DNA of 64,000 nucleotides from Thermoplasmata archaeon (GCA_041489255.1 JBGPQV010000009.1:31896-95895), one strand, 5' to 3'. Shown: positions 29,171 to 56,750, numbered from the stretch's first letter. Notes: generated by a model not told the origin, from the letters alone. A program made the numbers and translations.

Positions 29171-29305
29171 TCTGTAACAGGTTAATGAAAGAGGCAGTAT
29201 TTGGCACTTTCTGTTAACGCGTCACAGAAGGACACCCATATGGGCCGGATAGCTAAGAATGGCGTTGGGCAATCTATATATGCGCGCAAGACCATACTGC
29301 TTGTA

Positions 29306-29557
29306 ATGCGTGTCATTACAATCCGCTTGGACGCGGAAACCGAGAACGCCATGAAGGGAGTCAGAGGAATCAACTGGAGCGAGGTGCTCCGGCGGAGGAT
29401 CAGAGATGTATCCCGCAGGCATTCCCGCCAGAACAAGGTCAAGGCCCTGCTGGCTTCTCAGGAGCTTTCCAGGAAGCCCGCCAAGGGCTTTGAAAGCACT
29501 AAGGTAATCCGCAACTGGAGGGACCGAAGGCATGGCGCGGTGCGTGCCGGACGCTAG
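29306..29557 (+). CDS. VapB-like antitoxin (RHH/CcdA-like)
   Basis: VITIRLD...INWSEVLR...STKVIRNWRD, overlapping the PIN gene. Confidence 0.85.
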   Translation: MRVITIRLDAETENAMKGVRGINWSEVLRRRIRDVSRRHSRQNKVKALLASQELSRKPAKGFESTKVIRNWRDRRHGAVRAGR

Positions 29558-29963
29558 CGTCGTGGTCAAATGGTTCCTCGAGGAGGAGTTCTCCCGAGAC
29601 GCCCGGAGGCTGAGAGACGACTACGCCTCTGATGCTGTCGAGCTGGAGGCGCCATCCCTGCTACCATTCGAAGTCCTCAACGCGGTTCGTTATGCCGGAG
29701 TGTTCTCGGCGAAGGAGTTGCGGCGGGTGGCCGAGGCGCTCGACGCCTTCGCCATACCCACCAACCCGTTGGAAGGCCCCCTGGCGGTGAACACTTTGGA
29801 GGTGGCGTCGACGACGGGACTCACCGTGTACGATGCCAGCTACGTCGCCTTGGCTCGCGAGGTCGGTGGCATCCTGTACACCGCGGATCGCGCTTTGATC
29901 GCCGCCACGAAGCGTCTCGGTGTGGCCGCCCACATCGAGAGATACAAGACTCCTGATGAATGA
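29532..29963 (+). CDS. vapC: VapC PIN-domain toxin
   Basis: DASVVVKWF, FEVLNA, TVYDASYVALA and LYTAD. Confidence 0.9.
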   Translation: MARCVPDASVVVKWFLEEEFSRDARRLRDDYASDAVELEAPSLLPFEVLNAVRYAGVFSAKELRRVAEALDAFAIPTNPLEGPLAVNTLEVASTTGLTVYDASYVALAREVGGILYTADRALIAATKRLGVAAHIERYKTPDE

Positions 29964-29984
29964 AGACCGCGGATGCATTACATT

Positions 29985-30140
29985 GGAACCCGCATCCCTC
30001 CGGGAAGCATCTCAGCAGCTTCCCGGGCAGCCTGTCGTCAAGCTCCTCGATGTCGCGGTCCACGGGCTCAATCACGCGGATGCCATGCCTCTTGAGGCTC
30101 TCCCGCTTCGTCTTCGGCCATTTCACGAAGCGCGCACGAT
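29985..30140 (-). pseudogene. 3' gene remnant (C-terminus of a nuclease-like protein)
   Basis: KRHGIRVIEPVDRDIEELDDRLPGKLL resembles a recurring C-terminal LIELxDxDIxxLDDxLPxKLL motif (recalled). The 5' part is absent. Confidence 0.35.
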
Positions 30141-30534: not shown

Positions 30535-30786
30535 ATACCTATGCTCCCTGCGCCAGAGATATCTCGAGAAGCCTTAAATGTTTCCGGACACCGCATGTCA
30601 CCGGGCATTCGGGGTCGCGGAGCCTGCGCAATCGATGCAGGCGGTCGATGGACGCCCCTCGCTCGGACTTACCGGAACCCGTATCCCTCCGGTAAGCATT
30701 TCAGCGAGTCAGAAAGGCCCAATCTGAAAGACATGAGAAACAGTGACGCCTAGTAATGGTGTCGTTCTACTCTGCTGCGAGTCGGC

Positions 30787-31024: not shown

Positions 31025-31131
31025 ATGACGAAGGGCCGCTGGCGCTTGCCCATCCTGGCCGAGTCCGCGATGATCTTGGCATACTGCCAGTACACGAGGT
31101 CGTTGAGAGTGCGGACGGCAGGTGGCGGCCT
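31025..31131 (-). pseudogene. HNH gene fragment 0 (putative N-terminal 35 codons)
   Basis: Reads (R)PPPAVRTLNDLVYWQYAKIIADSARMGKRQRPFV. I recall this as the N-terminus of the HNH family at 42120-42614, and it ends exactly where that ORF begins. Confidence 0.6.
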
Positions 31132-31321
31132 GGTTAGAACCGTGGGTGATAGATGGGGAGCTGTCGACCTAAATCCTCACCCTGCCGCCAGTCCGCATGC
31201 GAACCGCCATCGGTCGTCCTGTCTCGGGCGGGTCGCGCTCAGAGCGCTTGAGTGTCCGAAGAGCATCGGGTGAAGGGAACAATTAAGTATGGCTTCCTAT
31301 ATTGATTTCCCATAAAGTACC

Positions 31322-32134
31322 ATGAAAGAGACACTTTCAGGAAACGGATATAGGAAAAGTCTCTCTCCCACCGAGAGCCGCGTCCTCTCAGACCTCGTGT
31401 TCCACGGCATGTCCATGTTCACCGCCAAGGACCTCGCCCCTTACGGGGTCGACGCGAAGCGCTTCCTATCGCGGCTCAGGAACAAGGGGTGGATCGCTTG
31501 GGTGAAGAGAGGCCTCTACCTGATAGCGCCGCTGGAGGCCGGGAAGGACGGCGCGAAGTCACACACCGTCCACAGCTTCGTCCTCGCATCGCACCTCGCC
31601 GAGCCCTGCTACGTGGGCTTCTGGAGCGCCCTGAGCCACCACGGCATGACGGAGGCCACGCCCCCGGTCGTGTATCTCGCGAGCACGGTACATCAGAACA
31701 GCCGGATCATCTTCGACGTGCGCATTGTGTTCGTCACGCTGCGACCTTGGAAGATGTTCGGGACTGAGATTGTCAGGATCGAGGGGAGCGAAGTGACCGT
31801 GTCGGACCGGGAGAAGACGGTTGTGGACTGCCTCGACCATCCGGAGCATTGTGGCGGTATCGTGCAGATCCTTGACGTCCTCGAGGACGAGTTCGACAGG
31901 GTGGACTACGGGCGCGTGCTCCGTTATGCCCGCAGGATGAGGAACACGACGATCCTGAAGCGCCTGGGCTACCTGCTCGACATCCTCGGATACCACGATG
32001 AGGCAGGACGGATCCCGCGTGCCTCCATCGGGCAGGGGTACTCCAAGCTGGACCCCAGGTTCCCCAACGCGGGTCCGACGAACGAGCGGTGGAGGCTGCG
32101 GGTCAACGTCCGACTGGGGTCGAGGGAAGGGTGA
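31322..32134 (+). CDS. AbiEi-family antitoxin / transcriptional regulator (type IV TA)
   Basis: wHTH RLRNKGWI..VKRGLY, YVGFWSALSHHG, SDREKTVVDCLDHP and KRLGYLL. Confidence 0.9.
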   Translation: MKETLSGNGYRKSLSPTESRVLSDLVFHGMSMFTAKDLAPYGVDAKRFLSRLRNKGWIAWVKRGLYLIAPLEAGKDGAKSHTVHSFVLASHLAEPCYVGFWSALSHHGMTEATPPVVYLASTVHQNSRIIFDVRIVFVTLRPWKMFGTEIVRIEGSEVTVSDREKTVVDCLDHPEHCGGIVQILDVLEDEFDRVDYGRVLRYARRMRNTTILKRLGYLLDILGYHDEAGRIPRASIGQGYSKLDPRFPNAGPTNERWRLRVNVRLGSREG

Positions 32135-32943
32135 AGATGATACGCGCCGCGGAGCTGAGGGCGACCGCCCGCCTGATCGGCCTCCCCGTCGACATCGTGG
32201 AGAAGGACTATGCCCTGGGGTGGATTCTGGCAGGAGTCGTCCGTTCGAAGCCCGGCCCGCAGCTCGTGCTCAAGGGCGGGACGGCCCTGTCGAAGATATA
32301 CTACCCGAGGGGCTGGCGGCTCTCCGAGGACCTCGATTTCACCCTGCGGCGCGTGGCCAAGCTGGAGGACGCAGCGCTCGGTCTCGCCGGGGAGCTCCCT
32401 GACCTGGTCGACAAGCTGTCGGGCGGTCTTCGCGTCGCGGCCCGCGATCCCCCTCACGTGGCCGGGGAAGGGTATATGCAGCTCAAGTTCCGCTTCGAAG
32501 GCCCGATCGGCGCAGGTGTCGTCAAGGTAGAGGCCTCGAGGGAGGACCCGGTGGGGCCGACATCGACGAGGACGCTCGCGAGGTCCTATCCGGACTATCC
32601 ATCCGAGAGGGTGAAGGTCTACACGCTGGAGAACATCGTGTCCGAGAAGCTGAGGGCGATGGCGGAGAGACAGCGCGTCAGGGACTATTACGACGTCTGG
32701 AAGCTGGCGAAATCGGGCGGGGTCGACTGGGTGGTAGTCCGCGAGCTGTTCCCCAGGAAATGCGCGTTCAAGGGAGTCAAGGTGAAGTCGATCGGGGACC
32801 TCTTCCCTGACGGCCTCGAGGCGGTCCTGGGACCGTATATGGACGTGGGGCTCACCCGTCTAACGGCGGAGCCCTTGCCTCCTTTGAGGTCCTGGCTGAA
32901 CGAGGCGAGGAGGATTGTCCGCAGGGAGCTGAAGCTCCGGTAA
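32131..32943 (+). CDS. AbiEii-family nucleotidyltransferase toxin
   Basis: VEKDY, LKGGTAL, RLSEDLDF, EKLRA and RVRDYYD. Confidence 0.92.
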   Translation: MKMIRAAELRATARLIGLPVDIVEKDYALGWILAGVVRSKPGPQLVLKGGTALSKIYYPRGWRLSEDLDFTLRRVAKLEDAALGLAGELPDLVDKLSGGLRVAARDPPHVAGEGYMQLKFRFEGPIGAGVVKVEASREDPVGPTSTRTLARSYPDYPSERVKVYTLENIVSEKLRAMAERQRVRDYYDVWKLAKSGGVDWVVVRELFPRKCAFKGVKVKSIGDLFPDGLEAVLGPYMDVGLTRLTAEPLPPLRSWLNEARRIVRRELKLR

Positions 32944-32945
32944 AC

Positions 32946-33050
32946 GCCGGACGCCCTTTTCGCGATAAAATGGATTGAGAGACCTCCTCGTTCCACCGCG
33001 TCGATGTACCATGCGACCTTTCCCTGCGTCAGCTTTCGCGCGGGGGGCAT
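32946..33050 (-). mobile_element. 5' remnant of an IS481-like transposase
   Basis: MPPARKLTQGKVAWYIDAVERGGLSIHFIAKR resembles the HTH start of archaeal IS481-type transposases and is truncated. Confidence 0.4.
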
Positions 33051-33326
33051 TGCGTTCCCTTCAAGGAACTCATCCTGGGATCGTGCACGGCTTCGGAGGG
33101 ACACAGCATATATAAGTGGGGTTTGGATGTCTTTTCGAGAATCCGGGCAGAAGGTACTGCTAAGCGCCCAGGGGATGGACAACGCGACTGGAACTGCGTA
33201 CGGTTTGGGGGTAAGGGGTAAGAGCGGGAACCGGACGATGTACGCCGTCCAAGAAGGCCAGAGAGGCGAAGGATACGAATTCCTGGGGGCGAATGGTTTA
33301 GCAGGACATGCTGCGGGGTTTTGCCT

Positions 33327-33809
33327 ATGAAGAAAGCCAACCTGACGATACGGGAGGAGATCCAGGACTTGGGCTTCAGGCTCTGCCTCATGAAGGAGGC
33401 GCAGAAGCAGTTCATCACGCGCTTCTTCGCCGAGAACCTCCAGGACAAGAAAACTGTCGAGGTCCTCGTGGGTGGCAGCCGGAAGAACGTCGACCGATAC
33501 ATCGAGAACGTGAAGAAGATGCGAACGGGAAATCCCAAGGGATTCGATGTGGAAACACAGGACTATTACGGGAGCATAATGGACATCAGGGATTTCGCAG
33601 GCTATCTGACGGCGGAACAGCTGGTAAGAGGAGTGGGGGGCATGACGGGGCTTGTTTTGAGGATCGACACGCTTGTTTCGAGGATCGACACGCTCGACAG
33701 GACGCTCGTCGAGCGCCTTTCCGGGCTCGAGACGACACTGAAGGGGATTGGCCCTGACATCGCGAGAGCCATACTGGAAGGGTTCGAGCGCCTGGAGAAG
33801 CGAGGTTAG
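33327..33809 (+). CDS. Acylphosphatase-like domain plus coiled-coil tail
   Basis: IQDLGFR...ENLQDKKTVEVLVGG, then RIDTLVSRIDTL encoded by a 21-bp tandem duplication. Confidence 0.7.
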   Translation: MKKANLTIREEIQDLGFRLCLMKEAQKQFITRFFAENLQDKKTVEVLVGGSRKNVDRYIENVKKMRTGNPKGFDVETQDYYGSIMDIRDFAGYLTAEQLVRGVGGMTGLVLRIDTLVSRIDTLDRTLVERLSGLETTLKGIGPDIARAILEGFERLEKRG

Positions 33810-33890
33810 ACGCCATTCGGAGGGCACTCGCATCAGCCTTTTGTAATTGGAGATCGATGCGGACCTTGGCGGATTGCCATCGAGGAACCA

Positions 33891-34205
33891 TTGGGCCTGT
33901 ACTGTGACCGCGGGGTCTGCGAAGAGGTGCTCAGGAGCCTGGGATATCGCGTCACGGATGGCGGCTCAGAGCTGCACGCGACGAAGATGCTCCGTGGGGG
34001 ACGATTCCATGTCGTCATCGAAGGCACGGGCTTCCCGCTTTCTGGGAACATGGTCAGTGCTCATCTTGACATCAGTGGCAAAGGGCTCGTCAAGCATCCG
34101 GTTGTCTACGAGAGCCAGCAAATCCAGAAGGAGGTCGGACGGATTCGTTCCGCCCTGTTGAAGACGATCAAGGCTGCGCGAGAGAAGCGACGCGGTTCGG
34201 GATGA
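33891..34205 (+). CDS. Hypothetical protein
   Basis: 104-aa ORF whose TGA stop lies inside HNH fragment 1. Confidence 0.5.
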   Translation: MGLYCDRGVCEEVLRSLGYRVTDGGSELHATKMLRGGRFHVVIEGTGFPLSGNMVSAHLDISGKGLVKHPVVYESQQIQKEVGRIRSALLKTIKAAREKRRGSG

Positions 34206-34255
34206 GGTGGTCCAGGGTGAGGTCGGCGCCCTTGTCGCGGTAGATGCAGCGGCGG
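34197..34255 (-). repeat. HNH gene fragment 1
   Basis: 56/59 identical to 42476-42534. Confidence 0.95.
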
Positions 34256-34360
34256 TGGCATGATTCACATCGCCGTTTATCCCACAATTGGGAGATGACG
34301 AAGACAACTTACCAATTTGGTGAGACACCGAAATCATCTTATATAAAGAGTCAGTATTAC

Positions 34361-35434
34361 ATGTCAATGTATGAAAACGAGGAGATTCCAGCCTTCCCTC
34401 CCCGCTCAATCGTCGGAAGGATCCTCGAACTCGGCTTTCTGAGCGGACCCTGGAATCGTTCGGAACTGGAGGGCAGATGGGGTCAGAGCACCACGAATAA
34501 GTTCATCCAGGAAGCCAAGGAATTCGGATGGCTTGTAAGCCCCTTTCAGAACGAATTCTTCGTTCCATCAGCCCAGGACCTGATGGTCGTGGGGTGGCTG
34601 CCTAGGCCTCAGCGCCAGGAGTTCATCATAAGCCGAACATTAGCGGCCACTGGAATGCGCTTCTGGTGCCTTTCTGCTTGGATGAGGACTTATGAACTTG
34701 AGTTTCCGGAACCGTTGTTTGTGAGCGACCTAGCAGGAGCGCCTCGTCTCGGTGACCGCAGGAAGAAGCGTTCAACATTCCCCCCTGCCAAAGAAATCCG
34801 TGAGAGGAACCTGAGCATCGTGAAGCGCCTTAGACGGATTCCTTTCCTTTCGAATCTGGTAATAGTTCCAGAGCTCCCTCAGACTGGCAGGTTCGGCTTC
34901 CCAGCCAAGGTCGTTCTGCCCAGAGGCGTATCGCAAAAACCGCTTCGTTGGGACTGGCTTGTCGAAGACGATTCGTCCGAAAACATGGACGACATGAGGA
35001 ATCAACGTGTCAATCGTGCTTCAGGCAGGGAGATCCGCTTTCTTCTGTCTGCCAGAGTCGACGATCCTGCTTGGGTGATCGCTTTCCTAATCGCATTGGG
35101 CCTTCCACGAATCCAGGAGAAGCTACCCCGAGTAGTACAACGTGAGATTCAACGCCAGACATTCTATCGAATTCAGGAAATAGAGTCTAATGGGGCAATC
35201 AAAGTCAGAATAGAGGAGGATTTGCTGAAACGTGTCCGAAATTGGGGCGCCTTTCTGGGACAACCTGCGCCGAATGACTCTTGGCAGCGAGTGCTTTCTG
35301 AAGGCCTCTTCCCCTACCTTCTGGTCCCTTGGGCTCTCTGGAATGAGCTCGCTAGTTTCTCTGCTTCATGGAGACTGCAGTCAGTGCACAATTTGAGAGG
35401 TCTGTTAGATGCTGAACCTAGAAGCTCAGACTGA
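34361..35434 (+). CDS. Hypothetical protein, probable divergent AbiEi-like antitoxin
   Basis: TTATATAA at 34339 precedes ATG 34361. It has a wHTH-like N-terminus and overlaps the downstream NTase gene. Confidence 0.6.
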   Translation: MSMYENEEIPAFPPRSIVGRILELGFLSGPWNRSELEGRWGQSTTNKFIQEAKEFGWLVSPFQNEFFVPSAQDLMVVGWLPRPQRQEFIISRTLAATGMRFWCLSAWMRTYELEFPEPLFVSDLAGAPRLGDRRKKRSTFPPAKEIRERNLSIVKRLRRIPFLSNLVIVPELPQTGRFGFPAKVVLPRGVSQKPLRWDWLVEDDSSENMDDMRNQRVNRASGREIRFLLSARVDDPAWVIAFLIALGLPRIQEKLPRVVQREIQRQTFYRIQEIESNGAIKVRIEEDLLKRVRNWGAFLGQPAPNDSWQRVLSEGLFPYLLVPWALWNELASFSASWRLQSVHNLRGLLDAEPRSSD

Positions 35435-36080
35435 AGCGCTGCAGATTGTTGCAGCAGCGGCAAAGAAACACGGCCTAGTCGTAGCACCGGTCGGCAGTGT
35501 CTACTTTCTTTTTACCGAACGTAAGCATTTGACTACAAAAGATATCGACGTTGTCGTTCATGTTGACGCGGACACCATCGCTCCTCTGGAGTTGCTGGAG
35601 AAGATGGGCCGAGAGCTTGGGGTCGCCGTGTCTTCGGGCGATAAGGCCACTGTCACTGTGACTGTCGAGAGCAAGTACGGCCCCGTAAGGATAGACCTGA
35701 TAAGGGGAAAGGAAGGAGCCAGGCGTAGCTTCTTGCCGAGGGAATTGCTGCGCACCGCTGCCAGATATGGGCGGAGAGACGGCAGTATCCTATGGTATCC
35801 CATCGAGTTCGTAATCCTTTTCAAGGCGGATGCGGCAGTTGACAGAGCTAAACGGGCTCGGAGTGGCGGCCCGAAGGCTGCGGAGAACCTGCGTAGAGCA
35901 GACGTATTCAGACAGGACGTTTTCGCGCATGTCCAGTCGTCTTTGGAAGGCGACGGGCTCAACGAGAGATACCTGATTGAGGGTCTCAGTCATCTTAAGC
36001 AAGTCAGACGAAATGAAGTCGCGTCACTCCTGGAGGCAGCCAGCGGAGGTCGTTTGACTCTGAGCGTCGGGACAGACTAG
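35409..36080 (+). CDS. Pol-beta-like nucleotidyltransferase (AbiEii/DUF6036-like)
   Basis: VGSVYF...TTKDIDVVV, RIDLI and ILFKA. Confidence 0.7.
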   Translation: MLNLEAQTEALQIVAAAAKKHGLVVAPVGSVYFLFTERKHLTTKDIDVVVHVDADTIAPLELLEKMGRELGVAVSSGDKATVTVTVESKYGPVRIDLIRGKEGARRSFLPRELLRTAARYGRRDGSILWYPIEFVILFKADAAVDRAKRARSGGPKAAENLRRADVFRQDVFAHVQSSLEGDGLNERYLIEGLSHLKQVRRNEVASLLEAASGGRLTLSVGTD

Positions 36081-36242
36081 GTGTGCCCGCAGAAGATCAT
36101 CGTCCTCGACAATGGAGGTGTTATCCTCTTCATATTGAGCTGCGCGATATATTTCTTGAAGACAAGTTCATGATCCGCGAGGACCTGGTCGGCATCGGGA
36201 CTCCAGACACGAGCCTCAAAACGAGTGAAGGGATTCTGTGCA

Positions 36243-36418
36243 TCGCCGCCTTCAGTCCCCCGCGAGCGGTCCAGTACTCGTAGAGCCGCCGCGCGCCCTT
36301 GGAGCTGTTGCATGAGGCGCACACCCAGACGGCGTTCTTCTCGTCCTGGGGCCCGTGGAGCGCCCTCGGGATGAGGTGGTCCAGGGTGAGGTCGGCGCTC
36401 CTCTCGCTGTTGACGCAG
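36243..36418 (-). repeat. HNH gene fragment 2 (contains the HNH core)
   Basis: 168/176 identical to 42353-42528. Confidence 0.97.
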
Positions 36419-36427
36419 TATCGCGGA

Positions 36428-37606
36428 TTACGCAAGGCTAGTTCGGTCCCTACGCCTGATGCGAACATTCCCTGCACCGTCCGCTCCCGAATCCGAAATT
36501 TCAAACTCTCCGCCCAATGCTTGGACGAAGCGGAGGAGCTTAGAATATCCGTATGCCCTCCAATCGAATGGAGGATTCAGGTGCCGGAGTTTATACCCTA
36601 GTATCGATAGAAATGCGGTTCCATCGTCCCGCTTGGTTTCTTCAAATATCTTTCCGAAGATGTCCAGCGCTTCAGGCGGGATGCTGGTTTTCGGGCTCAG
36701 ATCGGTCTTCGGAGCCTCCTCAATCTGCTTCGCCTCCGAAGAGCCCTGCAGGGTTACTGTCTCATGAGGAGCTTCGCAGGCGGGCTGGAGAGCCTGAGTG
36801 GGTCTCGGCTCACCGATTTCGGGAACCGATGGCAGTTGCTTCCGAATCTCCCTGATTTTCTCCTGTAGCGCCTCAATCTCCTCCATGTGGTCAATGAACG
36901 GGATGGATCCATATTCAATGTCGAATGCGAGCCCTGTCGGTCTCAGCACGTTTTCGTTCAGCGTGAATATCCTCTCAAGGCGCGATTCCGTCCGCTTGCA
37001 GTGGGAATTGAGCATCCGGTTGCTGATATGTCGGTTCTTGTCAGATATCTTCGCCAACGCCAACCATCTCTCTTTCTCTTCAGCATGCAGTGTGGAATAC
37101 CCTACCTTTTCTTCAGGTGAAAGTGAAATCCCGCTGGTCACGAAGATGTCGTCTTCCGAAGACGGCTCGGTCCGCCCGGTCTTCAGGTACGGAATCAAAG
37201 CTTTGTCTAAGTTCTTCTGTAGCTTCCCGCCATGTACGCGCGGATGCTTTGTGGAAATCGTGTGATCGGGTTCTGAAGTGATAATCAATATGTCGGGGTC
37301 GACGTCCAAGATTCGTCCGATGCAATACAGAAGTGCTGCGAGTTTTGTGCGTCCGATTTCTGTGGAGGGATTGGGCAACCTGGCCTGAGTCAAGTCTTTG
37401 AGGAATATCTTTGGAACGATGTGGTTCAACTTAGTGTCTGTGTATCTAATGATGCTGACCTGTTCCGCGAGACGCTTCACCTTCATCATGGCGACGATTT
37501 CCCTCGCCTTTTCCACGCATTTGTCGACATTGTCGCATGACGGCAGATTCTCTAGAACGAACATGGCTGAGAGAGCATTTCGCATCGCCTGCGTCGTTCG
37601 CCCCAC
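36428..37606 (-). CDS. Protein with C-terminal OST-HTH/LOTUS domain
   Basis: AFLSILGYKLRHLNPPFDWRAYGYSKLLRFVQAL. The N-terminal domain is not recognised. Confidence 0.75.
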   Translation of the reverse strand: MGRTTQAMRNALSAMFVLENLPSCDNVDKCVEKAREIVAMMKVKRLAEQVSIIRYTDTKLNHIVPKIFLKDLTQARLPNPSTEIGRTKLAALLYCIGRILDVDPDILIITSEPDHTISTKHPRVHGGKLQKNLDKALIPYLKTGRTEPSSEDDIFVTSGISLSPEEKVGYSTLHAEEKERWLALAKISDKNRHISNRMLNSHCKRTESRLERIFTLNENVLRPTGLAFDIEYGSIPFIDHMEEIEALQEKIREIRKQLPSVPEIGEPRPTQALQPACEAPHETVTLQGSSEAKQIEEAPKTDLSPKTSIPPEALDIFGKIFEETKRDDGTAFLSILGYKLRHLNPPFDWRAYGYSKLLRFVQALGGEFEISDSGADGAGNVRIRRRDRTSLA

Positions 37607-37779
37607 GATAATCGATAAGGGCGATCAAGCGTATTAAACGTTTTTCCTAGTTATGTGAATGGCGAATCCTCATCAGTTAGCTTCTCCCGGAAAGGCATGG
37701 CATCTCTCACACCGCCGAACCTAGGTGCTCTCCAGGATGCTTGTCTCTCTTCCGTCATGTATTATCCCGCCTTCGTAGA

Positions 37780-38340
37780 AAATGCGGACGGTCCTTAGCG
37801 AAATGCGGACCGTGTCAGGCAAAATGCGCGCGAACCTTGAGGAAATGCGGAGTAAGTCCATCCGCGTGTGGACCGAGGCGGAGCGAGTGTGGAGGAGGTC
37901 TTTCCACGTCAGAATGGAATCTCGGAACACTCGCATCGAGCCTCGGAACATCGTCGCGGATGCGGAAGACCGCACCGGAGGCCCCGGAGAGTGTGGACAG
38001 AGTCGCTCTGCATGTGGACGGAGTCCGTCCGCATGCGGACGATGACCGTCCGAGTGTGGCCGGATTCTCTCCACTTGCGGACCGAGGCCGGGCGAGTGCG
38101 GACGGAATCTCCCCACTCGTGAACTGAGATGGAGCGAGTGTGGACGGAGCCCGGGAACATTCTCGCGCATATACCCGTAAGTACCGATGCCCTCGGAGGG
38201 CGCGGACGGAGTCCGTGCGAGTGTGGATAGAGTCTCTCCGCGCGTGGGCGTAGGCGGAGCGATTGTGGCCGGAGTCGCTCTGCGTGTGGACGGAGTCCGT
38301 GCGAGTGTGGATGAAAGGGCCGCCGTATGGAGTGGGATGT
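37780..38340. repeat. Degenerate 21-bp tandem array (about 26 units)
   Basis: Units such as GAGTGTGGACGGAGTCCGTGC, GCATGTGGACGGAGTCCGTCC and AAATGCGGACCGTGTCAGGCA in 21-nt phase, with occasional 20-nt slips. Confidence 0.9.
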
Positions 38341-38574
38341 GCGCGGGCCGTGCGGTGGCCGGTCGCGACGGGCATTGAAGGCGGTTGTCACGCCTGCGCG
38401 AGGGGCGTCGTCCGACCGTGGGGCAGCTATCCTCCTCACCCTCCTGCCTGATCGCGTTGATTCCCGGAGCGGCATCCCGTCCAGCGACACAACGCCAGGG
38501 TCATCGAAGTCCCGCCCGCGGATAGTCTGACCGCGGAACGAGCCGATGACAATCAGGCAGGCACGGCGAAGACA

Positions 38575-38624
38575 GGAAAGAAGAAAGAAAAAGGTGGCGG
38601 GAGGCCAAGGGACCCCCGCCTTCG
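38575..38624 (-). terminator. Hairpin plus U-tract terminator after the 38660-39040 gene
   Basis: Minus strand GGCGGGGG-TCCCTTGG-CCTCCCGCC followed by ACCTTTTTCTTTCTTCTTT. Confidence 0.7.
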
Positions 38625-38659
38625 TGGAATTCCCCTCATTGCTGCTTTGTTTATCTTGA

Positions 38660-39040
38660 TCATTCGTTCTTCTGGGGAATCGGCTGGATGGCGGGGACCT
38701 CCTTCGGGTTCGGCCTCGCTATCCGGCTCCTCAGCCTGCGGATGATCTTCCCCGCCGGGGAAGACCTGTCCACCGCCGTCAGCAGGGCGTCGACGCCGCC
38801 GGAGGTCAGGTTGTACAGCTTCTTGCACAGCACCTTCAGCCGCTCCGTGGATTCCCTCAACTGCCTCTTGAGGTCCTCCTGGTGAGCGTCCTCCGCGACA
38901 ACCTCGTCATGGACCTGCTTGATGTTGTTCCTGATCGCGTCGGGGTTGTACCCGGTTGCTTTCATCGCCGCTTGCTCCTCGTCGATACTCTTCTGCACGG
39001 TGTCTGACATTCCGAGCAGTTGTGCCTCGCTCAGTGACAT
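38660..39040 (-). CDS. Small coiled-coil/helical-bundle protein
   Basis: Strong RBS GGAGGAGG, 126 aa, heptad segment QEDLKRQLRESTERLKVL. Confidence 0.85.
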   Translation of the reverse strand: MSLSEAQLLGMSDTVQKSIDEEQAAMKATGYNPDAIRNNIKQVHDEVVAEDAHQEDLKRQLRESTERLKVLCKKLYNLTSGGVDALLTAVDRSSPAGKIIRRLRSRIARPNPKEVPAIQPIPQKNE

Positions 39041-39115
39041 CTTTGCTTTCCTCTCCCCTCCTCCCGAGGGGATGAGTATGACGTTGGCGGGCGGGTACTT
39101 GATGCTCTTCGGTCA

Positions 39116-39176
39116 ATTCACGGTGGATTCAGGGTGAATCTAGGGTGAATTCACCGTTAATTCACGGTTAATCCCG
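39116..39176. repeat. Phased 11-bp direct repeats (5-6 copies) upstream of the 38660-39040 gene
   Basis: AATTCACGGTG GATTCAGGGTG AATCTAGGGTG AATTCACCGTT AATTCACGGTT AATCCC. Confidence 0.85.
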
Positions 39177-39236
39177 CTCCTTCGCGTTTCCGTCAAGGAG
39201 AGAGGATGCGACGCGGATTCCTCAGGACTCGGTCGC

Positions 39237-39656
39237 TCATTGGGTATGGCCCTGCGGATGAACCCGGGACGGGGCAGGGGTTCTCGGGCGGTCTCCGTTC
39301 TCCACGTTCTTCAGCTCTGGCAGCCAGTCGTCATCGGGCGGCTTCGGGTTCACGGGCTTCGCGCTCAGGTCGATCCCCCTGGACTCCGCGAGGCTCCTCG
39401 CCAGCTCGTAGCCGGCGGGGGTGAGGTTGTAGGCCTTTCTCTTCCCGTGTGCGTCAGCGACCCATGTCTTCCTGAACTGGACGTACCCGTCGCGCTCGAG
39501 ATCCTTAAGCTCGTTCGCGACGTGGGTCACGCGGATCCCCAAACTCCGGGACAGGCCGAGCTGTGTCGTCTCCAGAGGGGGGACGCGACTCTCGGCGCAT
39601 TTGCGCTTTTCGTACAGTTTCATAACGAGCTTGTTGCCGACGGTGAATTTGTCCAG
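39237..39656 (-). CDS. Winged-helix (MarR/PadR-like) DNA-binding protein
   Basis: TQLGLSRSLG...HVANELKDLERDGYV...RKAYNLTPAG. Start uncertain (39623-39773). Confidence 0.75.
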   Translation of the reverse strand: MDKFTVGNKLVMKLYEKRKCAESRVPPLETTQLGLSRSLGIRVTHVANELKDLERDGYVQFRKTWVADAHGKRKAYNLTPAGYELARSLAESRGIDLSAKPVNPKPPDDDWLPELKNVENGDRPRTPAPSRVHPQGHTQ

Positions 39657-39914
39657 AACAAGTCCCCTCGCGTGAGATATTCGCGGGGAAGTATTTGAAA
39701 GGATTGGAAGGGAGTCTAGGGCGACCGAATAGTCTCGGAATCGATAACGTGAATGAGCGTCTTTTTGCGGCATGATTCAGGTTCTGATACTGATAACGGG
39801 CGGAATGAGTCGCTTCAAGTTGCGGGGATTGCGAATGAGATTGCGCTGGTGGGCCTTCTCGGCTACCCGTCGAAATGGTCTGCCCCGACGGATTCGTCTT
39901 TGAGTGACAAAACC

Positions 39915-40466
39915 TTACTCGGGACTCTTTGACATGACCGCCACACATGCAGGACACACGAAAGTCGTCTTGTGCATCCTATCTTCAGAAGTCCTCTTGA
40001 ACATGAGGGTTCGAATCCTCTTTCCGTCAAGCATCAGCTTGTTGAAATAGAGCATTTTCCTGTTTTTGACGGCGTCTCCCACCCTCGTCGTGAATTGGCC
40101 GTCCCTTGCCGCCGTCATGGTGCCGCAGAGTGCACACATGAAGTAATTCATGTTCCAAAGCGCTCGAAGAGTGAGAGCATCAATGCGTTCATGATATTGC
40201 GAACTCAGCACCTCGGCACATTGCATGGCTCTTCGTCCTCGAATCTCAATCAATCCAACCCCTAGGCGGGTGGCAAGCTCTCTCTGCTCCGATGTGAACC
40301 ATTCCCTCCTCCTCATGGGTATCGCAAGATAGCACTTGTGCGCGAAAAGGGAGTATCCAAGAGCCTGCTCGAGCAGCTTTCCGAAATTTGAAGTGCTCAG
40401 CTTCACCTCCACCTTAAACGCGTTCATTCCATCAGCCTCGCTGGTTCCAACCGACCCAATCTCCAA
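39915..40466 (-). CDS. PD-(D/E)XK-type nuclease with Zn-finger, probably 5'-truncated
   Basis: VEVK...LEQALGY...AHKCYLA...GVGLIEI, then CALC and CPAC. Confidence 0.6.
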   Translation of the reverse strand: MEIGSVGTSEADGMNAFKVEVKLSTSNFGKLLEQALGYSLFAHKCYLAIPMRRREWFTSEQRELATRLGVGLIEIRGRRAMQCAEVLSSQYHERIDALTLRALWNMNYFMCALCGTMTAARDGQFTTRVGDAVKNRKMLYFNKLMLDGKRIRTLMFKRTSEDRMHKTTFVCPACVAVMSKSPE

Positions 40467-40551
40467 TCGGAGTGGGGCGAGTACCAGAATCCTATGAGAG
40501 TCTCAATTCCACAAGACGACCTCTTTGGCTGTCCAGATTAGGTTCGTCACA

Positions 40552-40731
40552 TCAAGAACTCGTATAGGTAACGTCTTCGCCGGACTCCAATTCCGCCACA
40601 ATATCTTGAAGTTCGGCGATATCTCTGCTCTCCTTTCGAATACTCTTGATCTCGGCGGCGAGATTTCGGTCAGCGATGGCCTCGGACAGTTTCCTGAAAA
40701 CGATGGCGAACCGGTACTCAGCCACGGACAT
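40552..40731 (-). CDS. 59-aa small protein (absent from the ORF track)
   Basis: MSVAEYRFAIVFRKLSEAIADRNLAAEIKSIRKESRDIAELQDIVAELESGEDVTYTSS. Its ATG lies 2 bp after the upstream stop. Confidence 0.65.
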   Translation of the reverse strand: MSVAEYRFAIVFRKLSEAIADRNLAAEIKSIRKESRDIAELQDIVAELESGEDVTYTSS

Positions 40732-40733
40732 AA

Positions 40734-40995
40734 TTACGCGACCACAGGCTTTCTACTTTGCGCTTCGATTTGCCGTCTTGCATCGACTAGGTTCGTCTCC
40801 GTGCCACAGCCAGGACACTTGAAAGTATTGGACGCCGGGAAAGGCAGATGACCGGTCTGCAGTGGATGGGATTCTCCTAGGTTAACTTGGATCAAGGACT
40901 CCTGTCCGCACTTCTCGCACTTGTGCGTGATAATCGCGACATCCGCCTTGGCTTCCTTTTGAGGGGGCGGAACCTGCTGCATGATGAATCGCACG
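40734..40995 (-). pseudogene. C-terminal Zn-ribbon remnant, recalled as the tail of SDH/ClpP-fold protease genes
   Basis: RFIMQQVPPPQ...CEKC...IQVNLG...FPASNTFKCPGCG...RRQIEAQ with no intact 5' region. Confidence 0.5.
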
Positions 40996-41142
40996 ACACG
41001 AGCAAGCACGGGACGGCGCTTGAGTATGTGAAGATGCTTAGCCCAGAGTTCGCGGTCATCTTGCTCATCAGCTTCGGAATGGTTCTCATCCTCCTGATTC
41101 ACTCCCCAGTTCGAGGGTTGTGACAGATTACTGCGCGACACC

Positions 41143-41280
41143 CTATGTGCGTGACTTCGCATCGTCTCTGAGGATGACGGTCGCGATCCCGTCCAGGCAC
41201 AGCGGCGACAGCTTCCCCTCCGAGCCCTCGCGGAGGCGTAATTCTCCTGCGGCACTCCGGGCGGAACCGCACACGGGATT
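41143..41280 (-). repeat. HNH gene fragment 3 (C-terminus of a diverged allele)
   Basis: 41192-41230 is identical to 42169-42207. It encodes EGSEGKLSPLCLDGIATVILRDDAKSRT* versus ...LDGVATAILRADFESCI*. Confidence 0.92.
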
Positions 41281-41377
41281 TACTCTGACGGAATTCTCCT
41301 ATCCTAGGCCGATTGCGTTATGAAAGTACACAGAATCATTATAGCCGCGAATGCGTTGCCATTCGCGTGGATGAGAC

Positions 41378-41893
41378 TTGACTGCAGAGCGCACGATGCT
41401 GTTCATGGACGGATCGAATCTTTTCCACTCCACCAAGGACTTCGACCCTGGATTGAAGATCGATCTCTTGAAGCTTCGAGATTTCTTGGCGAAAGACAGG
41501 CTCCTGATACGCGCATACTACTATGGCTCGATCCCGATCGGGAATCCGGAGAAGATCGCGAAACAGACCGCCTTTCATCATTTGCTCGAGTACAGCGGTT
41601 TCAAGACGGTGATTCTGCCGCTGCGCAGGCGAGGGACGGAGTACGTGGAGAAGGGTGTCGACGTCTCCCTTGTTACCGACATGTTGGCGCTTGGGTTCGA
41701 TCGAGCTTACGAGTGCGGCATTCTTGTGGCTGGCGATGCCGACTATGTCAGGGCGATTCAAGAGGTGGAACGCAAGGGCATCAGGATTCACGTCGCATTC
41801 TACGATCCCCCCTTATGTGCGGGCGACCTGAGACGGGCTGCACATTCGTTCGTCTCGCTGAATAAGCATCTTGAGGAATTCAGGAAGTCGTGA
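41378..41893 (+). CDS. NYN domain (LabA/DUF88) RNase
   Basis: FMDGSNL, EKGVDVSLVTDML and AGDADY. Confidence 0.92.
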   Translation: MTAERTMLFMDGSNLFHSTKDFDPGLKIDLLKLRDFLAKDRLLIRAYYYGSIPIGNPEKIAKQTAFHHLLEYSGFKTVILPLRRRGTEYVEKGVDVSLVTDMLALGFDRAYECGILVAGDADYVRAIQEVERKGIRIHVAFYDPPLCAGDLRRAAHSFVSLNKHLEEFRKS

Positions 41894-42119
41894 AATCAAA
41901 AATGCATTGAGGAAGCTTTTTTGCCAGACGACCGAACCAAATGATGTGCGCTTGTCGTTATGGCTTTTGGCGGTCGTCTGGAGAGTTATTTTCGCATTCT
42001 TAATTCACGTGCTTGCTTAAAACTCTTTCGCTTGGAGTCAGCCTCTTGATAGCCTGATCTGGCAAGCGTCCGTGTGAGCGATTGATGGATATTTCCGAGA
42101 AGGTTCTATGCGCAATGGC

Positions 42120-42614
42120 CTAGATGCACGATTCGAAGTCTGCGCGGAGTATCGCGGTCGCAACACCATCCAGGCACAGCGGCGACAGCTTCCCCTCCGA
42201 GCCCTCGTGGATGCACGTCTCCTTCAGGTCGCACTCGGGGCAGAATCGCGCGCGGATCTCGCTCTCCTCCAGCCCCAGGAGGCCCGCCTGGTCGAACATG
42301 TCGTGGAGGAGCTTCAGGTACTTGCCCTCGGCTATGCGCGGCACGTCGTACTTCGCCGCCTTCAGCCCCCCGCGCGCGGTCCAGTACTCGTAGAGGCGCC
42401 GCGCGCCCTTGGAGCTGTTGCACGAGGCGCACACCCAGACGGCGTTCTTCTCGTCCTGGGGCCCGTGGAGCGCCCTCGGGATGAGGTGGTCCAGGGTGAG
42501 GTCGGCGCTCTTCTCGCAGTAGATGCAGCGGCGGGTGTCCTCCCGCTCCTTCACGTACTCCCTGATCGAGTCCCAGGCGATCTCCCCCGACTGGAGCTTC
42601 TTGAAGCGGTCCAT
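42120..42614 (-). CDS. HNH endonuclease with Zn-binding Cys pairs, probably lacking its N-terminal 35 aa
   Basis: CIYC...TLDHLIP...NAVWVCASCNSSKG. Confidence 0.9.
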   Translation of the reverse strand: MDRFKKLQSGEIAWDSIREYVKEREDTRRCIYCEKSADLTLDHLIPRALHGPQDEKNAVWVCASCNSSKGARRLYEYWTARGGLKAAKYDVPRIAEGKYLKLLHDMFDQAGLLGLEESEIRARFCPECDLKETCIHEGSEGKLSPLCLDGVATAILRADFESCI

Positions 42615-42725
42615 GATATGATTTCAGGTCAAGTCGTGCCGCAGCAGTCAAATACTAGATCGAACCACATTGCTCAAATACGAAGCCTCGGTTGACGATG
42701 GCCAGATGAGGGAGAGGGTGGTGCC

Positions 42726-43589
42726 CTGCTCAAAGCTGAACTCCATGGCAGCATGAGGATTTCCGAAGGGCTCGAGGATATCCTGACCTCCGACGTCTTC
42801 GGCGTACTTGACTACGTCCACGACGCCGCCCTTCTCACAAGCCTCCTAAGGTGCGCCAAGAGCAGATCAGGCTCCCGACTCCCAAAGGAGATTCTCGATC
42901 AAGCATCGGACTTCGAGCTTCACTTCTGGCCAGAGTTCACGGATGGGAGTGTGCCTGATCTAATCGTCGTTCTGAAATCTCGCGATGATACGATTCTTGC
43001 CGCCATCGTGATTGAGTGCAAGTTCAAGTCTGGCCTCAACAGAAAGGATTCATCCGAGAAACAGGGCGACAAGGCGGTGGACGGTAAGGAAGCTCTCGAA
43101 GGTCAACTCACCGCTTATGGGAGGAACCTTGTTTTCGGATCAGCGAAGGATAGGACTCTGAAGGAGAGAATCTCCAAAGCCCCCAACAGATACCTGATTT
43201 ACCTCACTTCACACTATGATTTCCCTGAAGATCCCGGAATCGAACTCTCGGTCCGAAAACTCGGCCGCATGGGCTTGGAGCTTCTATGGCTGAGTTGGCG
43301 TGACTTCACCGTCGGCTTCGAAGACTACGCAAAAGGTTTGGCGGCTCCCGATCAGAGATGTGGACGCATGGTCAAGGATATCATTCAATTATTGACGGAG
43401 CGCAAGAAGCTCCAACGTTTCAGTCACTTGACAAAAGATCTCAGCCGGGGAGTCAGCACCACTGTGCCATCGGCGCTTGGATTCTTGGCTTCAGGGACCG
43501 GCGGGTATAGATTCAAAGACCTCACGTGCGGGATGCCGATGCATATCGATAACATGCCATTCAAATTCGTTTATTCAAGGAGGAAATGA
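42726..43589 (+). CDS. PD-(D/E)XK nuclease
   Basis: LKAELHG...EDILTSDVFG, PDLIV...IECK and QL.AY. Probable CTG start at 42726; first ATG at 42753. Confidence 0.75.
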   Translation: MLKAELHGSMRISEGLEDILTSDVFGVLDYVHDAALLTSLLRCAKSRSGSRLPKEILDQASDFELHFWPEFTDGSVPDLIVVLKSRDDTILAAIVIECKFKSGLNRKDSSEKQGDKAVDGKEALEGQLTAYGRNLVFGSAKDRTLKERISKAPNRYLIYLTSHYDFPEDPGIELSVRKLGRMGLELLWLSWRDFTVGFEDYAKGLAAPDQRCGRMVKDIIQLLTERKKLQRFSHLTKDLSRGVSTTVPSALGFLASGTGGYRFKDLTCGMPMHIDNMPFKFVYSRRK

Positions 43590-43590
43590 A

Positions 43591-44265
43591 ATGGCTCAAA
43601 GCGCATTTGGAAAGGAATTGGAGGTCAATTTGGGGTATCTGGAGGAATTGTGCCGGCGAACGATACTGCTTTTCATGGATGCAGGTGGTAGGCTTAGGGA
43701 ACTAGGCTGGCAGCAATGGATGACTACGCCCTCCGAGTTCTATACTAGACATTCAGCGAGTGCAACGCGCGTTGAACTCTGGTATCCATCGATATTCGTG
43801 AAGTACTTCGTGAAAGGGCAAGACAAGAGCGCGGTCTCGGCTGAAGCGTCACGCGTACTCGGTCTCGGAGTCCAGCTCAGGGGGACCGCCAAGGGATTCG
43901 AGCCCAAGATACACGGACTTCTTCTCGAATTCTCGAAGCCCAGAACGAGAATCGGCAATCCTCCGGGATGGTACTGGGAATCCGCCTGTGAGCTATCCAG
44001 ATTGACGACGGAGGAACTGACTATTCCGACAGGCTTGAAGAGTCTGGAAGCCCGTTTCGTCAAAGCCAAAACGGCCCCTGGAGCGGAGAACAACTGGCCG
44101 GATCTGAGTCGGCTCTCTTTCTTTGAAGTGCCGATGGTCTGGGTGGATGCTCAAGAGGATCTAAGGAATGTGATCGTCGAACCGCTCCATATCTTGGGCG
44201 AGAGCGGTCTTGAAGCCGCACGTGATAAGATTCTTGAGTACTGCAAGGCCAAGGACCGCGCATAG
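43591..44265 (+). CDS. Hypothetical protein coupled to the nuclease gene
   Basis: RBS AGGAGG, with the ATG 1 bp after the upstream stop. Confidence 0.7.
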   Translation: MAQSAFGKELEVNLGYLEELCRRTILLFMDAGGRLRELGWQQWMTTPSEFYTRHSASATRVELWYPSIFVKYFVKGQDKSAVSAEASRVLGLGVQLRGTAKGFEPKIHGLLLEFSKPRTRIGNPPGWYWESACELSRLTTEELTIPTGLKSLEARFVKAKTAPGAENNWPDLSRLSFFEVPMVWVDAQEDLRNVIVEPLHILGESGLEAARDKILEYCKAKDRA

Positions 44266-44540
44266 ATGTGTCCCTTGAAACCAGCTCAGCACAAACTTCA
44301 TCATCCCATCTCCGAAACCCATTTCCTCCAGGATCAATGAAGTCGGAACGGTAACCTTATGTGAGACTTGTGGTGCCTTACGCCGTCAAATAAGATGAAG
44401 ACGATCGTCCCCTGATGCCAGATACGAAAATGCCCCCGGCAAGGACGGCTTCGATTACAAAGAAGGGCATACACCAAACTGGCGGTTCAGAGCTATCTCC
44501 TGCCATATTCCGATGGCCACTACTGTCTCCAACATTTCAA

Positions 44541-44618
44541 GCGGATGTCTGCATCCTCCTTCACGTACTCCCTGATCGAGTCCCAGGCGATCTCCCCCGA
44601 CCGGAGCTTCTTGAAGCG
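44541..44618 (-). repeat. HNH gene fragment 5
   Basis: 44556-44618 is 62/63 identical to 42546-42608. Confidence 0.95.
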
Positions 44619-53152: not shown

Positions 53153-53341
53153 GGCTTGGCAAGAAGAACTCAAGGGATTAATAAGCTGTTCCGCCGAGGG
53201 TCAGAGATTCCTCGTCACCAAGTTTGCTACGCATTCGCATCATCGCCTAGCTTGGCCGGCAACTGTGTAGGGGTCACGAAAGCATTTCCCCGGTAACCTT
53301 TTAAGCCATCATCAGCAATCCACCCTGTGGGAGAGGAATTC

Positions 53342-56320: not shown

Positions 56321-56321
56321 T

Positions 56322-56750
56322 ATGCAGAAGTTCTTTCTCGAAATGACGAACCGGGGACAGCCGAGGCTGAACCTCTATCAGGTTCCCGCTGCCGTCAATG
56401 ACCCGAAGAAGAGGCTTCCACCCGAGTTGGTGGCTGCGCTATCAGGATGGCAGCTTCGAGTCGCCCAGAATTACGTCACTGCTGCGTTGAAGAGAAGCAA
56501 GCGCAATGTTGGCATCCTCCGCACGCGCACAAGGAGCAAGGCGTCGATTATCGAGGAGGACGGCATCCGTCTCGGCCTCATCTTCAGGGGACTCAAGGAT
56601 CTGAAGGATGTATCGAAGGCCCACGAACTCGTTTCTGGTGTGCACGGCATGAGCCGGGAGGAGGCCTACTACTGGTTCGCCAAGGTTCAGAACGGCTCGC
56701 CGAGCCGGGGCGTCCGCGCCCTTCGCGTGCTCTTGGCTGGGGTGAAGTGA
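56322..56750 (+). CDS. Small accessory protein of the restriction-like system (DUF3780-position gene)
   Basis: EEDGIRLGLIF...MSREEAYYWFAK...RALRVLL, lying between the DUF499 and DUF1156 genes. Confidence 0.75.
   Translation: MQKFFLEMTNRGQPRLNLYQVPAAVNDPKKRLPPELVAALSGWQLRVAQNYVTAALKRSKRNVGILRTRTRSKASIIEEDGIRLGLIFRGLKDLKDVSKAHELVSGVHGMSREEAYYWFAKVQNGSPSRGVRALRVLLAGVK

Follow-up and report, generated by a model that had tools for sequence, protein, structure and literature searches.

How are blocks of accessory genes added to an archaeal genome, and exchanged afterwards, where no recombinase is in view? Little is understood of the turnover of flexible regions in Archaea, defence islands among them, and frequently no integrase or transposase can be seen. 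A stretch of 64,000 nucleotides from a Thermoplasmata archaeon (GCA_041489255.1 JBGPQV010000009.1:31896-95895; the window in what follows) raises this question, as six pieces of one HNH endonuclease gene separate blocks of cargo genes between positions 31,025 and 44,618. We suggest that the region is a flexible island to which blocks were added serially by recombination anchored in the HNH gene (~199 codons), and from which they are still lost, gained and re-sorted through the leftover pieces; the chances of this account being right are, in our judgement, slightly better than even. The joints can be read directly here, as the same cassettes turn up, differently combined, in several genomes and metagenome contigs.

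The pieces were located by a blastn comparison of the region 41900-42900 with the whole window. Matches on the same strand as the longest HNH open reading frame (ORF) were obtained at 36243-36418 (168/176 identical, E 5e-78), 44556-44618 (62/63, E 7e-26), 34197-34255 (56/59, E 5e-21) and 41170-41276 (78% over 111, E 6e-20), the next-best match having an E value of 0.19. A tblastn search lengthened the pieces to 44618-44541, 36429-36223 and 41244-41152, in agreement with a repeat search. The pieces are as follows:

44541..44618, minus strand: N-proximal HNH piece, family codons 38-63 (blastn; tblastn to ORF residues 3-28; junction alignment)
42120..42614, minus strand: longest HNH copy, 5'-truncated, family codons 36-199, without the N-terminal 35 residues (Pfam HNH_5/HNH at residues 30-72)
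41152..41276, minus strand: C-terminal HNH piece, family codons ~155-197 (diverged flanks, identical 38-39-nt core)
36223..36429, minus strand: middle HNH piece, family codons 61-129 including the HNH motif (blastn; tblastn 81% over 69 aa)
34197..34255, minus strand: HNH piece, family codons 62-82 (blastn 56/59; repeat search)
31025..31131, minus strand: N-terminal extension piece, family codons 2-35, ending exactly at the V35/M36 joint (identity to contig C15, translation, profile)

The last of these gave no match to the longest-copy ORF, because that ORF itself lacks the N-terminal extension. A sequence-only reading of the window had proposed it as the missing N-terminus, and this was borne out. 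The segment 31025-31134 is 92.7% identical to 46151-46260 of contig C15 of the same genome, just upstream of two N-terminal pieces there; the piece translates to PPPAVRTLNDLVYWQYAKIIADSARMGKRQRPFV, the conserved N-terminal extension of the family; and the family profile matches it with an E value of 1.7e-13 at profile positions 2-36. Six co-oriented HNH pieces are therefore real: DNA matches reveal five of them, and the sixth is recognised as the conserved N-terminal 35 residues of the family. The ORF at 42120-42614, taken in that reading for an intact gene, is not one: it begins at family Met36, and the upstream DNA diverges exactly at the ATG in the junction alignment. The extension is present in 8/8 full-length relatives inspected and has invariant residues (MPP...YWQYAKII...F34) over 59 aligned sequences. 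The window ORF is thus not a full-length (~196-199 aa) family member, its extension lying separately at 31025-31131, and no full-length copy was found in the genome by tblastn or the family profile.

The C-terminal piece had been placed at 41143-41280; its 39-nt identical core is confirmed, and its bounds are revised to those listed. The same core lies at ~42169-42207 in the longest copy. The pieces are 59-207 nt long and have unique junction sequence on both sides. Their mutual overlaps and three tail types agree with the proposal that they derive from several copies or alleles, and at least five separate HNH C-termini exist within the genome. In gene direction the piece at 44541-44618 lies upstream of the longest copy. 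The middle piece has lost the first CxxC pair and gives a Pfam HNH match on the ORF 36130-36504. The arrangement [36-199]...[2-35], in which each joint falls at V35/M36, pointed to a gene split by circle integration of the SSV type; as the main account we discarded this, since HNH is not a recombinase and an HNH gene is restored at neither outer flank.

Do such pieces mark the ends of exchangeable cassettes? In the genome of the window (G000, the window being on contig C9) a second array of five co-oriented pieces is present on contig C15, and a congener (G001) has one full-length copy and a five-piece co-oriented array (contig C4). The latter array is orthologous to the window: the left flanks are ~92% identical up to 28.9 kb, and beyond this point the two islands are mosaics of common and private blocks with HNH pieces at the joints. 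A metagenome scan by a 26-nt core pattern gave 11 contigs (other loci and metagenome contigs carry L-numbers). One of them has five co-oriented C-terminal pieces within 5.5 kb, and others represent C15-locus alleles in which the same flanks enclose very different content, one simple state consisting of flank, full-length gene, one cargo block and flank. Co-orientation was counted as 6/6 in the window, 5/5 in C15, 5/5 in G001:C4, 5/5 in L117, 3/3 in L121 and 2/2 in L120.

It is apparent from these comparisons that the pieces mark cassette boundaries, as had been claimed, and that cassettes differ between homologous loci by exchange at the pieces. C-terminal copies are identical over the 38-39 nt of the core and then continue in several tail types, the variable tail being ~12-15 residues. 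Among 25 core occurrences there are 19 distinct combinations of flanks: the left flank that follows the NYN-domain gene runs into three right types and the one that follows a Fic gene into two, and three right types are each found with two left types. The piece at 41.2 kb of the window is itself recombinant, as its left side follows the G001 copy at 13616 up to the core and its right side the G001 copy at 12060. On G001:C4 a ~1.5-kb cassette is arranged core-Fic-core, whereas the window has a single core, and the Fic cassette is also present directly behind the full-length gene on L122. A filled and an empty site can be compared as well, the full-length gene being continuous on G001:C80 and carrying on G000:C15 an insert of 2746 bp with a Kelch gene, with 15 nt lost. 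Could all this be passive decay, in which tandem modules of HNH gene plus neighbour, made by duplication or repeated import, were eroded by random deletion and left the pieces as inert scars? The number of separate C-termini and the many unique boundaries would fit, and an HNH gene followed by a variable neighbour is indeed the usual unit (Fic on L122, NYN on L025, AAA_21 and DUF4276 on L121). However, random deletion does not predict joints in a shared core, and it is always within the core that one cassette end meets three continuations and one continuation two ends; nor does it account for the clean recombinant of two G001 pieces at 41.2 kb. We consider passive decay unlikely.

Another question is whether the arrays were made by the assembler. 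The genome is a metagenome-assembled genome (MAG) of 41 contigs, and alternative strain paths might have been stitched together at the shared HNH repeats. In Logan unitigs (k=31) from four runs, one possibly of the source sample, the unitigs end or branch inside every repeat piece, so that block order is unproven by them. Nevertheless, every cargo/piece junction is covered at 99% or more in the four runs, with unique sequence on either side of the short pieces, and the joint of C-terminal fragment, NYN gene and HNH gene is repeated in G001 and on the independent metagenome contigs L117 and L127. Arrays comparable to that of the window occur in the independent assemblies G001:C4 and L117. Unitig depth is alike for the unique blocks and the flanks (12.8-15.1 in run X1), which fits one molecule better, although depth at contig level is weak evidence; the low unitig depth of some blocks in run X5 does not lend itself to interpretation. 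Unitig joints such as that of 42612 to 31025, seen in all four runs, were not used as evidence, their loose ends matching the C15 copies. An assembly artefact appears very improbable.

How might such an array arise? In a first step, incoming DNA with an HNH gene and new neighbours would pair at one end with the HNH copy already present and be joined illegitimately at the other (homology-facilitated illegitimate recombination, or sequential displacement), and the rest of the resident copy would be displaced with its old neighbours as a truncated, co-oriented piece. We infer this step from the form of the pieces. It would explain why each piece has a single variable, sharp boundary, and why C-terminal pieces accumulate downstream of the longest copy and N-terminal ones upstream. 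One homologous and one illegitimate end would explain why the left boundaries of the C-terminal pieces vary (gene nt 267-516) and their right ends coincide with the gene end; the inner boundaries of the pieces are scattered over gene nt 104-557. In a second step, homologous recombination between the directly repeated pieces, chiefly in the 38-39-nt core, would delete the cassettes between them, and the looped-out circles would presumably be re-inserted. Deletion is shown by the comparison of genomes, and re-insertion is a probable extension of it. The second step would join the same left flank to different right flanks across genomes. On L127 the tail changes type beyond the core, which together with the scattered boundaries indicates that the crossover point is not fixed. 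The HNH gene would thus act as portable homology, with neither a dedicated recombinase nor the enzymatic activity of HNH being required, although the nuclease itself may yet have a role.

Several observations weigh against serial addition and re-sorting by homology. Plain illegitimate joining predicts no breakpoint clusters, yet ~8 of ~30 distinct breakpoints fall in gene nt 174-211 and 3 in nt 104-112. Pieces that are diverged (78-83% identical) retain a perfectly identical core, so the core could be a functional site instead of a trace of recent exchange. A four-gamete test with strict ungapped and with gapped flank typing gave no complete quartet, and cassette deletions alone, without re-insertion, could therefore explain the reassortment. 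Downstream of the longest copy there are also middle and N-terminal pieces (order C, middle, middle, N), and several additional events are needed to place them there. The repeats share just 38-100 nt, which may be too short for efficient recombination in this lineage; short homology suffices for recombination in some archaea. The read data are unitigs only, which cannot show circles or read-level variants.

How general is the arrangement? The HNH family is present in 21/79 genomes of the order, and four or more pieces occur in G000 and G001 only; there are smaller split or fragment cases in G015, G073 and G002, and two full copies in G077. In G073, of another genus, the gene at C32:14200-15617 is split into co-oriented parts of codons 15-82 and 80-114 that are 1.1 kb apart, by its sequence an independent insertion near the hot region (codons 61-71). 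The homologue in G002 (C110:9508-10008, same order) has two in-frame TAG codons, and is either a broken gene or one in which TAG is read as an amino acid. Of 80 loci from other species, 78 carry the gene once, with no pieces to be seen over a distance of 10 kb. The Bathyarchaeia carry the gene beside those for aIF5B, ThiS, Topo VI and enolase, and over 73 full-length loci the recurrent neighbours are an aIF5B-like GTPase (19) and ThiS (15), with Topo VI and enolase fewer. A conserved neighbour that might serve as partner or recombinase was sought over 8 relatives, and none was found, the recurrent ones being housekeeping genes. Contig ends were considered as a sign of hidden variability and discarded, since they fall within 3 kb upstream in 18/79 cases and downstream in 18/79, symmetrically and not clearly above expectation. 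From these sequences the gene is widespread and well conserved in Archaea, of an accessory or housekeeping-like kind, and the arrays are lineage-specific. The expectation that its fragments would flank different cargo in relatives thus holds in G001 and the metagenome contigs and fails at the great majority of loci in other species, and the idea of HNH as a general landing pad does not stand.

The protein itself is an HNH endonuclease by Pfam, with HNH_5 (PF14279) at 1.7e-10 and HNH (PF01844) at 3.9e-9, both past the cut-offs, and the window copy keeps the DH and CxxC...CxxC motifs. Profile matches in the PDB are to the HNH domains of Cas9 and IscB, and the structural model (pLDDT 92.1) has a predicted HNH core of Cas9/IscB type with helices on either side. 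Foldseek returned nothing for this model at E 0.001 or better; the best VIA structural match (Z = 4.4) is the Cas9 HNH domain, a weak score, the core alone resembling known folds. PADLOC gave weak PtuB/PDC-M01B matches (1.2e-5), too weak for an assignment to Septu, which was not adopted.

That the anchor is a nuclease gene raises the possibility of nuclease-stimulated capture: a full-length HNH protein would nick or cut within or beside its own gene family, and repair would drive insertion, displacement and shuffling. The breakpoint clusters and the core kept in otherwise diverged pieces lend this some support, and full-length alleles with intact DH motifs do occur in the same populations (L121-L124). 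On the other hand, the sole full-length copy of G001 (L025:9490-10080, on G001:C80) has Arg for the catalytic His (LDRL for LDHL), and G000 has no full-length copy at all. The same G001 copy also has Phe instead of Leu two residues before the catalytic position. The single-copy state of the gene elsewhere, without nearby pieces and in a housekeeping setting in Bathyarchaeia, argues against a general capture activity as well. No target site is known, and in full-length alleles conservation of the core does not exceed that of the remaining gene. Over six full-length or near-full-length alleles the variable columns per 30 nt are 12, 3, 5, 2, 1, 0, 5, 2, 2, 3, 3, 7, 0, 3, 7, 6, 9, 2, 10 and 18; as the core bin (2) is unexceptional, a special DNA-level constraint on the core was rejected. 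We regard nuclease-stimulated capture as improbable. The more specific idea that a full-length HNH recognises and nicks a site within its own gene family, either in the 38-39-nt core or at nt 174-211, thereby seeding the capture and reshuffling of neighbours, is if anything a shade less likely. If it were true, the arrays would amount to a nuclease-driven cassette platform of Archaea, one that works without an integrase and does what an integron does by different chemistry, and truncated copies such as those of G000 would mark arrays gone quiet. Among the mechanisms first offered, the best fit is given by homology-facilitated illegitimate recombination and by the accretion of DNA that bears HNH; capture driven by HNH cuts is without direct support, given the missing N-terminus of the longest G000 copy and the altered catalytic residue in G001.

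The breakpoint clusters and the kept core also give some support to integrases acting in trans. Elements would use an attB inside the HNH gene, as islands use tRNA genes, and carry partial HNH sequence, the pieces being att remnants; they do flank blocks in the way that partial tRNAs flank tandem islands (10.1101/2020.12.28.424599). Three breakpoint clusters might be read as such sites, and tyrosine recombinases exist elsewhere in the genome. They do not lie near the arrays, however. In the window and at the C15 and G001:C4 loci, Pfam found no gene with an integrase, serine recombinase or transposase domain. The four PF00589 matches of the G000 genome are on C6, C14 and C18 only, and none is on the array contigs of G000, G001 and G015 (C9, C15, G001:C4, G001:C80, G015:C11), matches in these genomes being elsewhere; the earlier remark that no integrase is in view is supported. 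In the 11 metagenome contigs the sole related gene is one IS481-type transposase on L124, outside the array. Boundaries scattered over the whole gene and a crossover beyond the core on L127 are not what a fixed att site would give, and no inverted or arm-type repeats were seen at the joints. Integrases in trans are, to us, as unlikely as passive decay. The nuclease and integrase explanations are both weakened by the missing N-terminus, the DH-to-DR change in G001, the single-copy state elsewhere and the lack of a nearby recombinase.

Serial addition anchored in the HNH gene is therefore the reading we keep, and the boundaries were further compared with those of known mobile elements. For terminal inverted repeats (TIR), the six block ends gave best 30-nt identities of 12-15, compared with a mean of 14.6 at random (95th percentile 17), and no target site duplication (TSD) was found; with no transposase in the unit, it is not bounded as a transposon or insertion sequence (IS). 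No inverted repeat recurs at the six boundaries, each having 0-2 short ones, and single-strand folding of the core and hot regions on both strands was no better than that of shuffles (z -1.0 to +0.7). No attC-like sites were found at the boundaries, a result obtained without a dedicated attC covariance model and without scanning the cargo interiors. The array thus has neither the IntI, the two or more attC sites within 4 kb and the single promoterless co-oriented ORFs of an integron or CALIN, nor the element-borne integrase and fixed att core of a tycheposon, its 38-39-nt core occurring in the C-terminal pieces alone. The term integron-like, used earlier, can stay as an analogy; having multi-gene blocks in either orientation and neither IntI nor an attC-like hairpin, the array is not an integron.

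The cargo blocks hold 1-6 genes on either strand:

42753..44265, plus strand, opposite to the HNH pieces: two genes of 278 and 224 aa (ORFs; no Pfam family)
41378..41893, plus strand: NYN-domain gene (Pfam NYN 1.3e-26; PADLOC HEC-09/NYN)
36428..41151, minus strand: OST-HTH gene (36428-37606), 21/42-nt tandem repeats, 126-aa gene, PadR-like gene (39237-39773), ORFs of 183 and 59 aa (Pfam, TRF)
34244..36080, plus strand: 396-aa gene and 223-aa DUF2204-like nucleotidyltransferase gene (ORFs; DUF2204 E 0.0025, below the family cut-off)
31322..34205, plus strand: AbiEi, AbiEii and three small ORFs (Pfam AbiEi_1 2.3e-13, AbiEii 1.5e-31)

From low to high coordinates the order is [2-35], AbiEi/AbiEii and small ORFs, [62-82], 396-aa gene and nucleotidyltransferase, [61-129], OST-HTH/repeats/PadR-like, [155-197], NYN, [36-199], the two genes, and [38-63]. 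By ORF and Pfam maps each piece stands at a cargo boundary, as had been stated; the stop codon at 34205 (plus-strand ORF 33891-34205) lies inside the piece 34197-34255, and the OST-HTH stop at 36428-36430 abuts the 36.3-kb piece. The 278-aa gene has a weak PADLOC PDC-M15A match, and one small ORF of the AbiE block is acylphosphatase-like (2.9e-5). The NYN cassette is common to G001:C4, L117 and L127 at 96-98% (blastn), and 40991-38595 is found again on metagenome contig L126 at 94% in another context. The cargo had been described as defence; it is not defence alone, as C15 has Kelch/FG-GAP and mannitol-dehydrogenase-like genes.

Within the OST-HTH block, degenerate 21/42-nt tandem repeats (37779-38325; TGTGGAC/TGCGGAC-type units) stand beside the OST-HTH gene and may be iteron-like or a repetitive coding region. 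At 39110-39173 the 11-nt unit CGGTGAATTCA is repeated 5.7 times in the gap (39041-39236) between the PadR-like gene and the 126-aa gene (38660-39040), possibly as an operator array. The segment 38580-39757 resembles 3467-4681 of L001 (G000:C15) at 70-72% nucleotide identity: a paralogous pair of a PadR-like and a small coiled-coil-like gene ends both arrays downstream, and the two G000 loci may, judging from this similarity, derive from one ancestral module.

Other features of the window lie outside the pieces. A 32-nt direct repeat (29985-30016 and 30674-30705, 29/32 identical, none expected by chance) surrounds a 721-bp segment common to G001:C4; the right end of this segment is a breakpoint in both genomes and abuts an HNH piece in G001, and a small mobile or att-bounded unit is possible. 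A PIN-domain gene with a small upstream ORF (29229-29980) corresponds to just ~21 nt at the orthologous G001:C4 site; the pair is a clean insertion or deletion, toxin-antitoxin-like and without HNH pieces. A complete Hma-type defence system is at 53327-63297, with an HmaC-like DUF499 ATPase (PADLOC E 2e-105), a DUF7680 protein, an HmaB-like DUF1156 methylase and an SNF2/HmaA-like helicase. The segment 63461-63611 is ~91% identical to the end of the IS481-family (rve) transposase gene on L124 and is likely an IS remnant at the far island edge. Outside the island, beside a tRNA-Ala gene, is a 2536-aa ORF (5398-13008) with WD40 propellers, subtilase and Ig-like domains.

These arrays give a model, concrete and open to test, of how cassettes may be exchanged without an integrase in an uncultured (sediment) archaeal lineage. 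They would carry the logic of Rhs and T6SS orphan arrays over to a different type of anchor gene, to different cargo and to the Archaea. In annotation, where a conserved gene has left short fragments in one orientation, these can flag cassette boundaries.

A literature search gave no description of this architecture, supplementary tables (e.g. the archaeal integron MAG list) being outside its coverage, and the known systems that come nearest differ in definite ways. Tycheposons, tandem islands at tRNA genes, likewise grow by successive additions at one gene and scatter partial copies (10.1101/2020.12.28.424599); unlike the present arrays, they have integrases and fixed att sites of ~40 nt, whereas here the array contigs have no integrase and the boundaries vary. 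Integrons, archaeal integrons and CALINs share exchangeable cassettes, a recurring separator and an integrase that may be out of view (10.1101/2022.02.06.479319). Here, in contrast, the separator is a coding fragment without hairpin potential and not attC, and the multi-gene cassettes do not share one orientation and a common promoter. IS26-type pseudo-compound arrays and translocatable units also hold cargo between directly oriented copies of one element, and a circle made of cargo and a single copy can be released and then inserted at a different copy; the repeated unit here, however, is a truncated HNH gene without a transposase.

The closest likeness is to the orphan arrays of Rhs/CDI and Vibrio T6SS loci, in which the longest, main gene has behind it truncated 3' pieces in the same orientation that retain some of the constant region (PMC5361080, PMC3967940), as is also seen here. 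Sequential displacement, or homology-facilitated illegitimate recombination, was put forward for the Vibrio T6SS and Rhs loci (PMC5361080), and recombination between an Rhs main gene and an orphan over 522 bp at 95% identity was shown (PMC3967940). In those systems, as in the model above, the entry of new modules is put down to homology at the constant part and an illegitimate join at the other end, and main gene and orphans recombine through the stretch they share. No Rhs/YD, CdiA or T6SS genes were found here by Pfam, and there is no toxin and immunity module. The anchor is a small HNH nuclease gene instead of a large toxin gene, and the variable tail a short stretch of residues instead of a toxin domain; the cargo is made up of complete genes, single or in pairs, that are unrelated and lie on either strand (NYN, Fic, AbiE, nucleotidyltransferase, Kelch) instead of CT/immunity pairs; and pieces come from the N-terminus and the middle of the gene too, in an archaeal host. 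By this analogy the arrays are best seen as fragment-punctuated accretion following the logic of Rhs/CDI/T6SS orphans, from which they differ in anchor, cargo, origin of the pieces, the presence of two loci per genome and the archaeal host.

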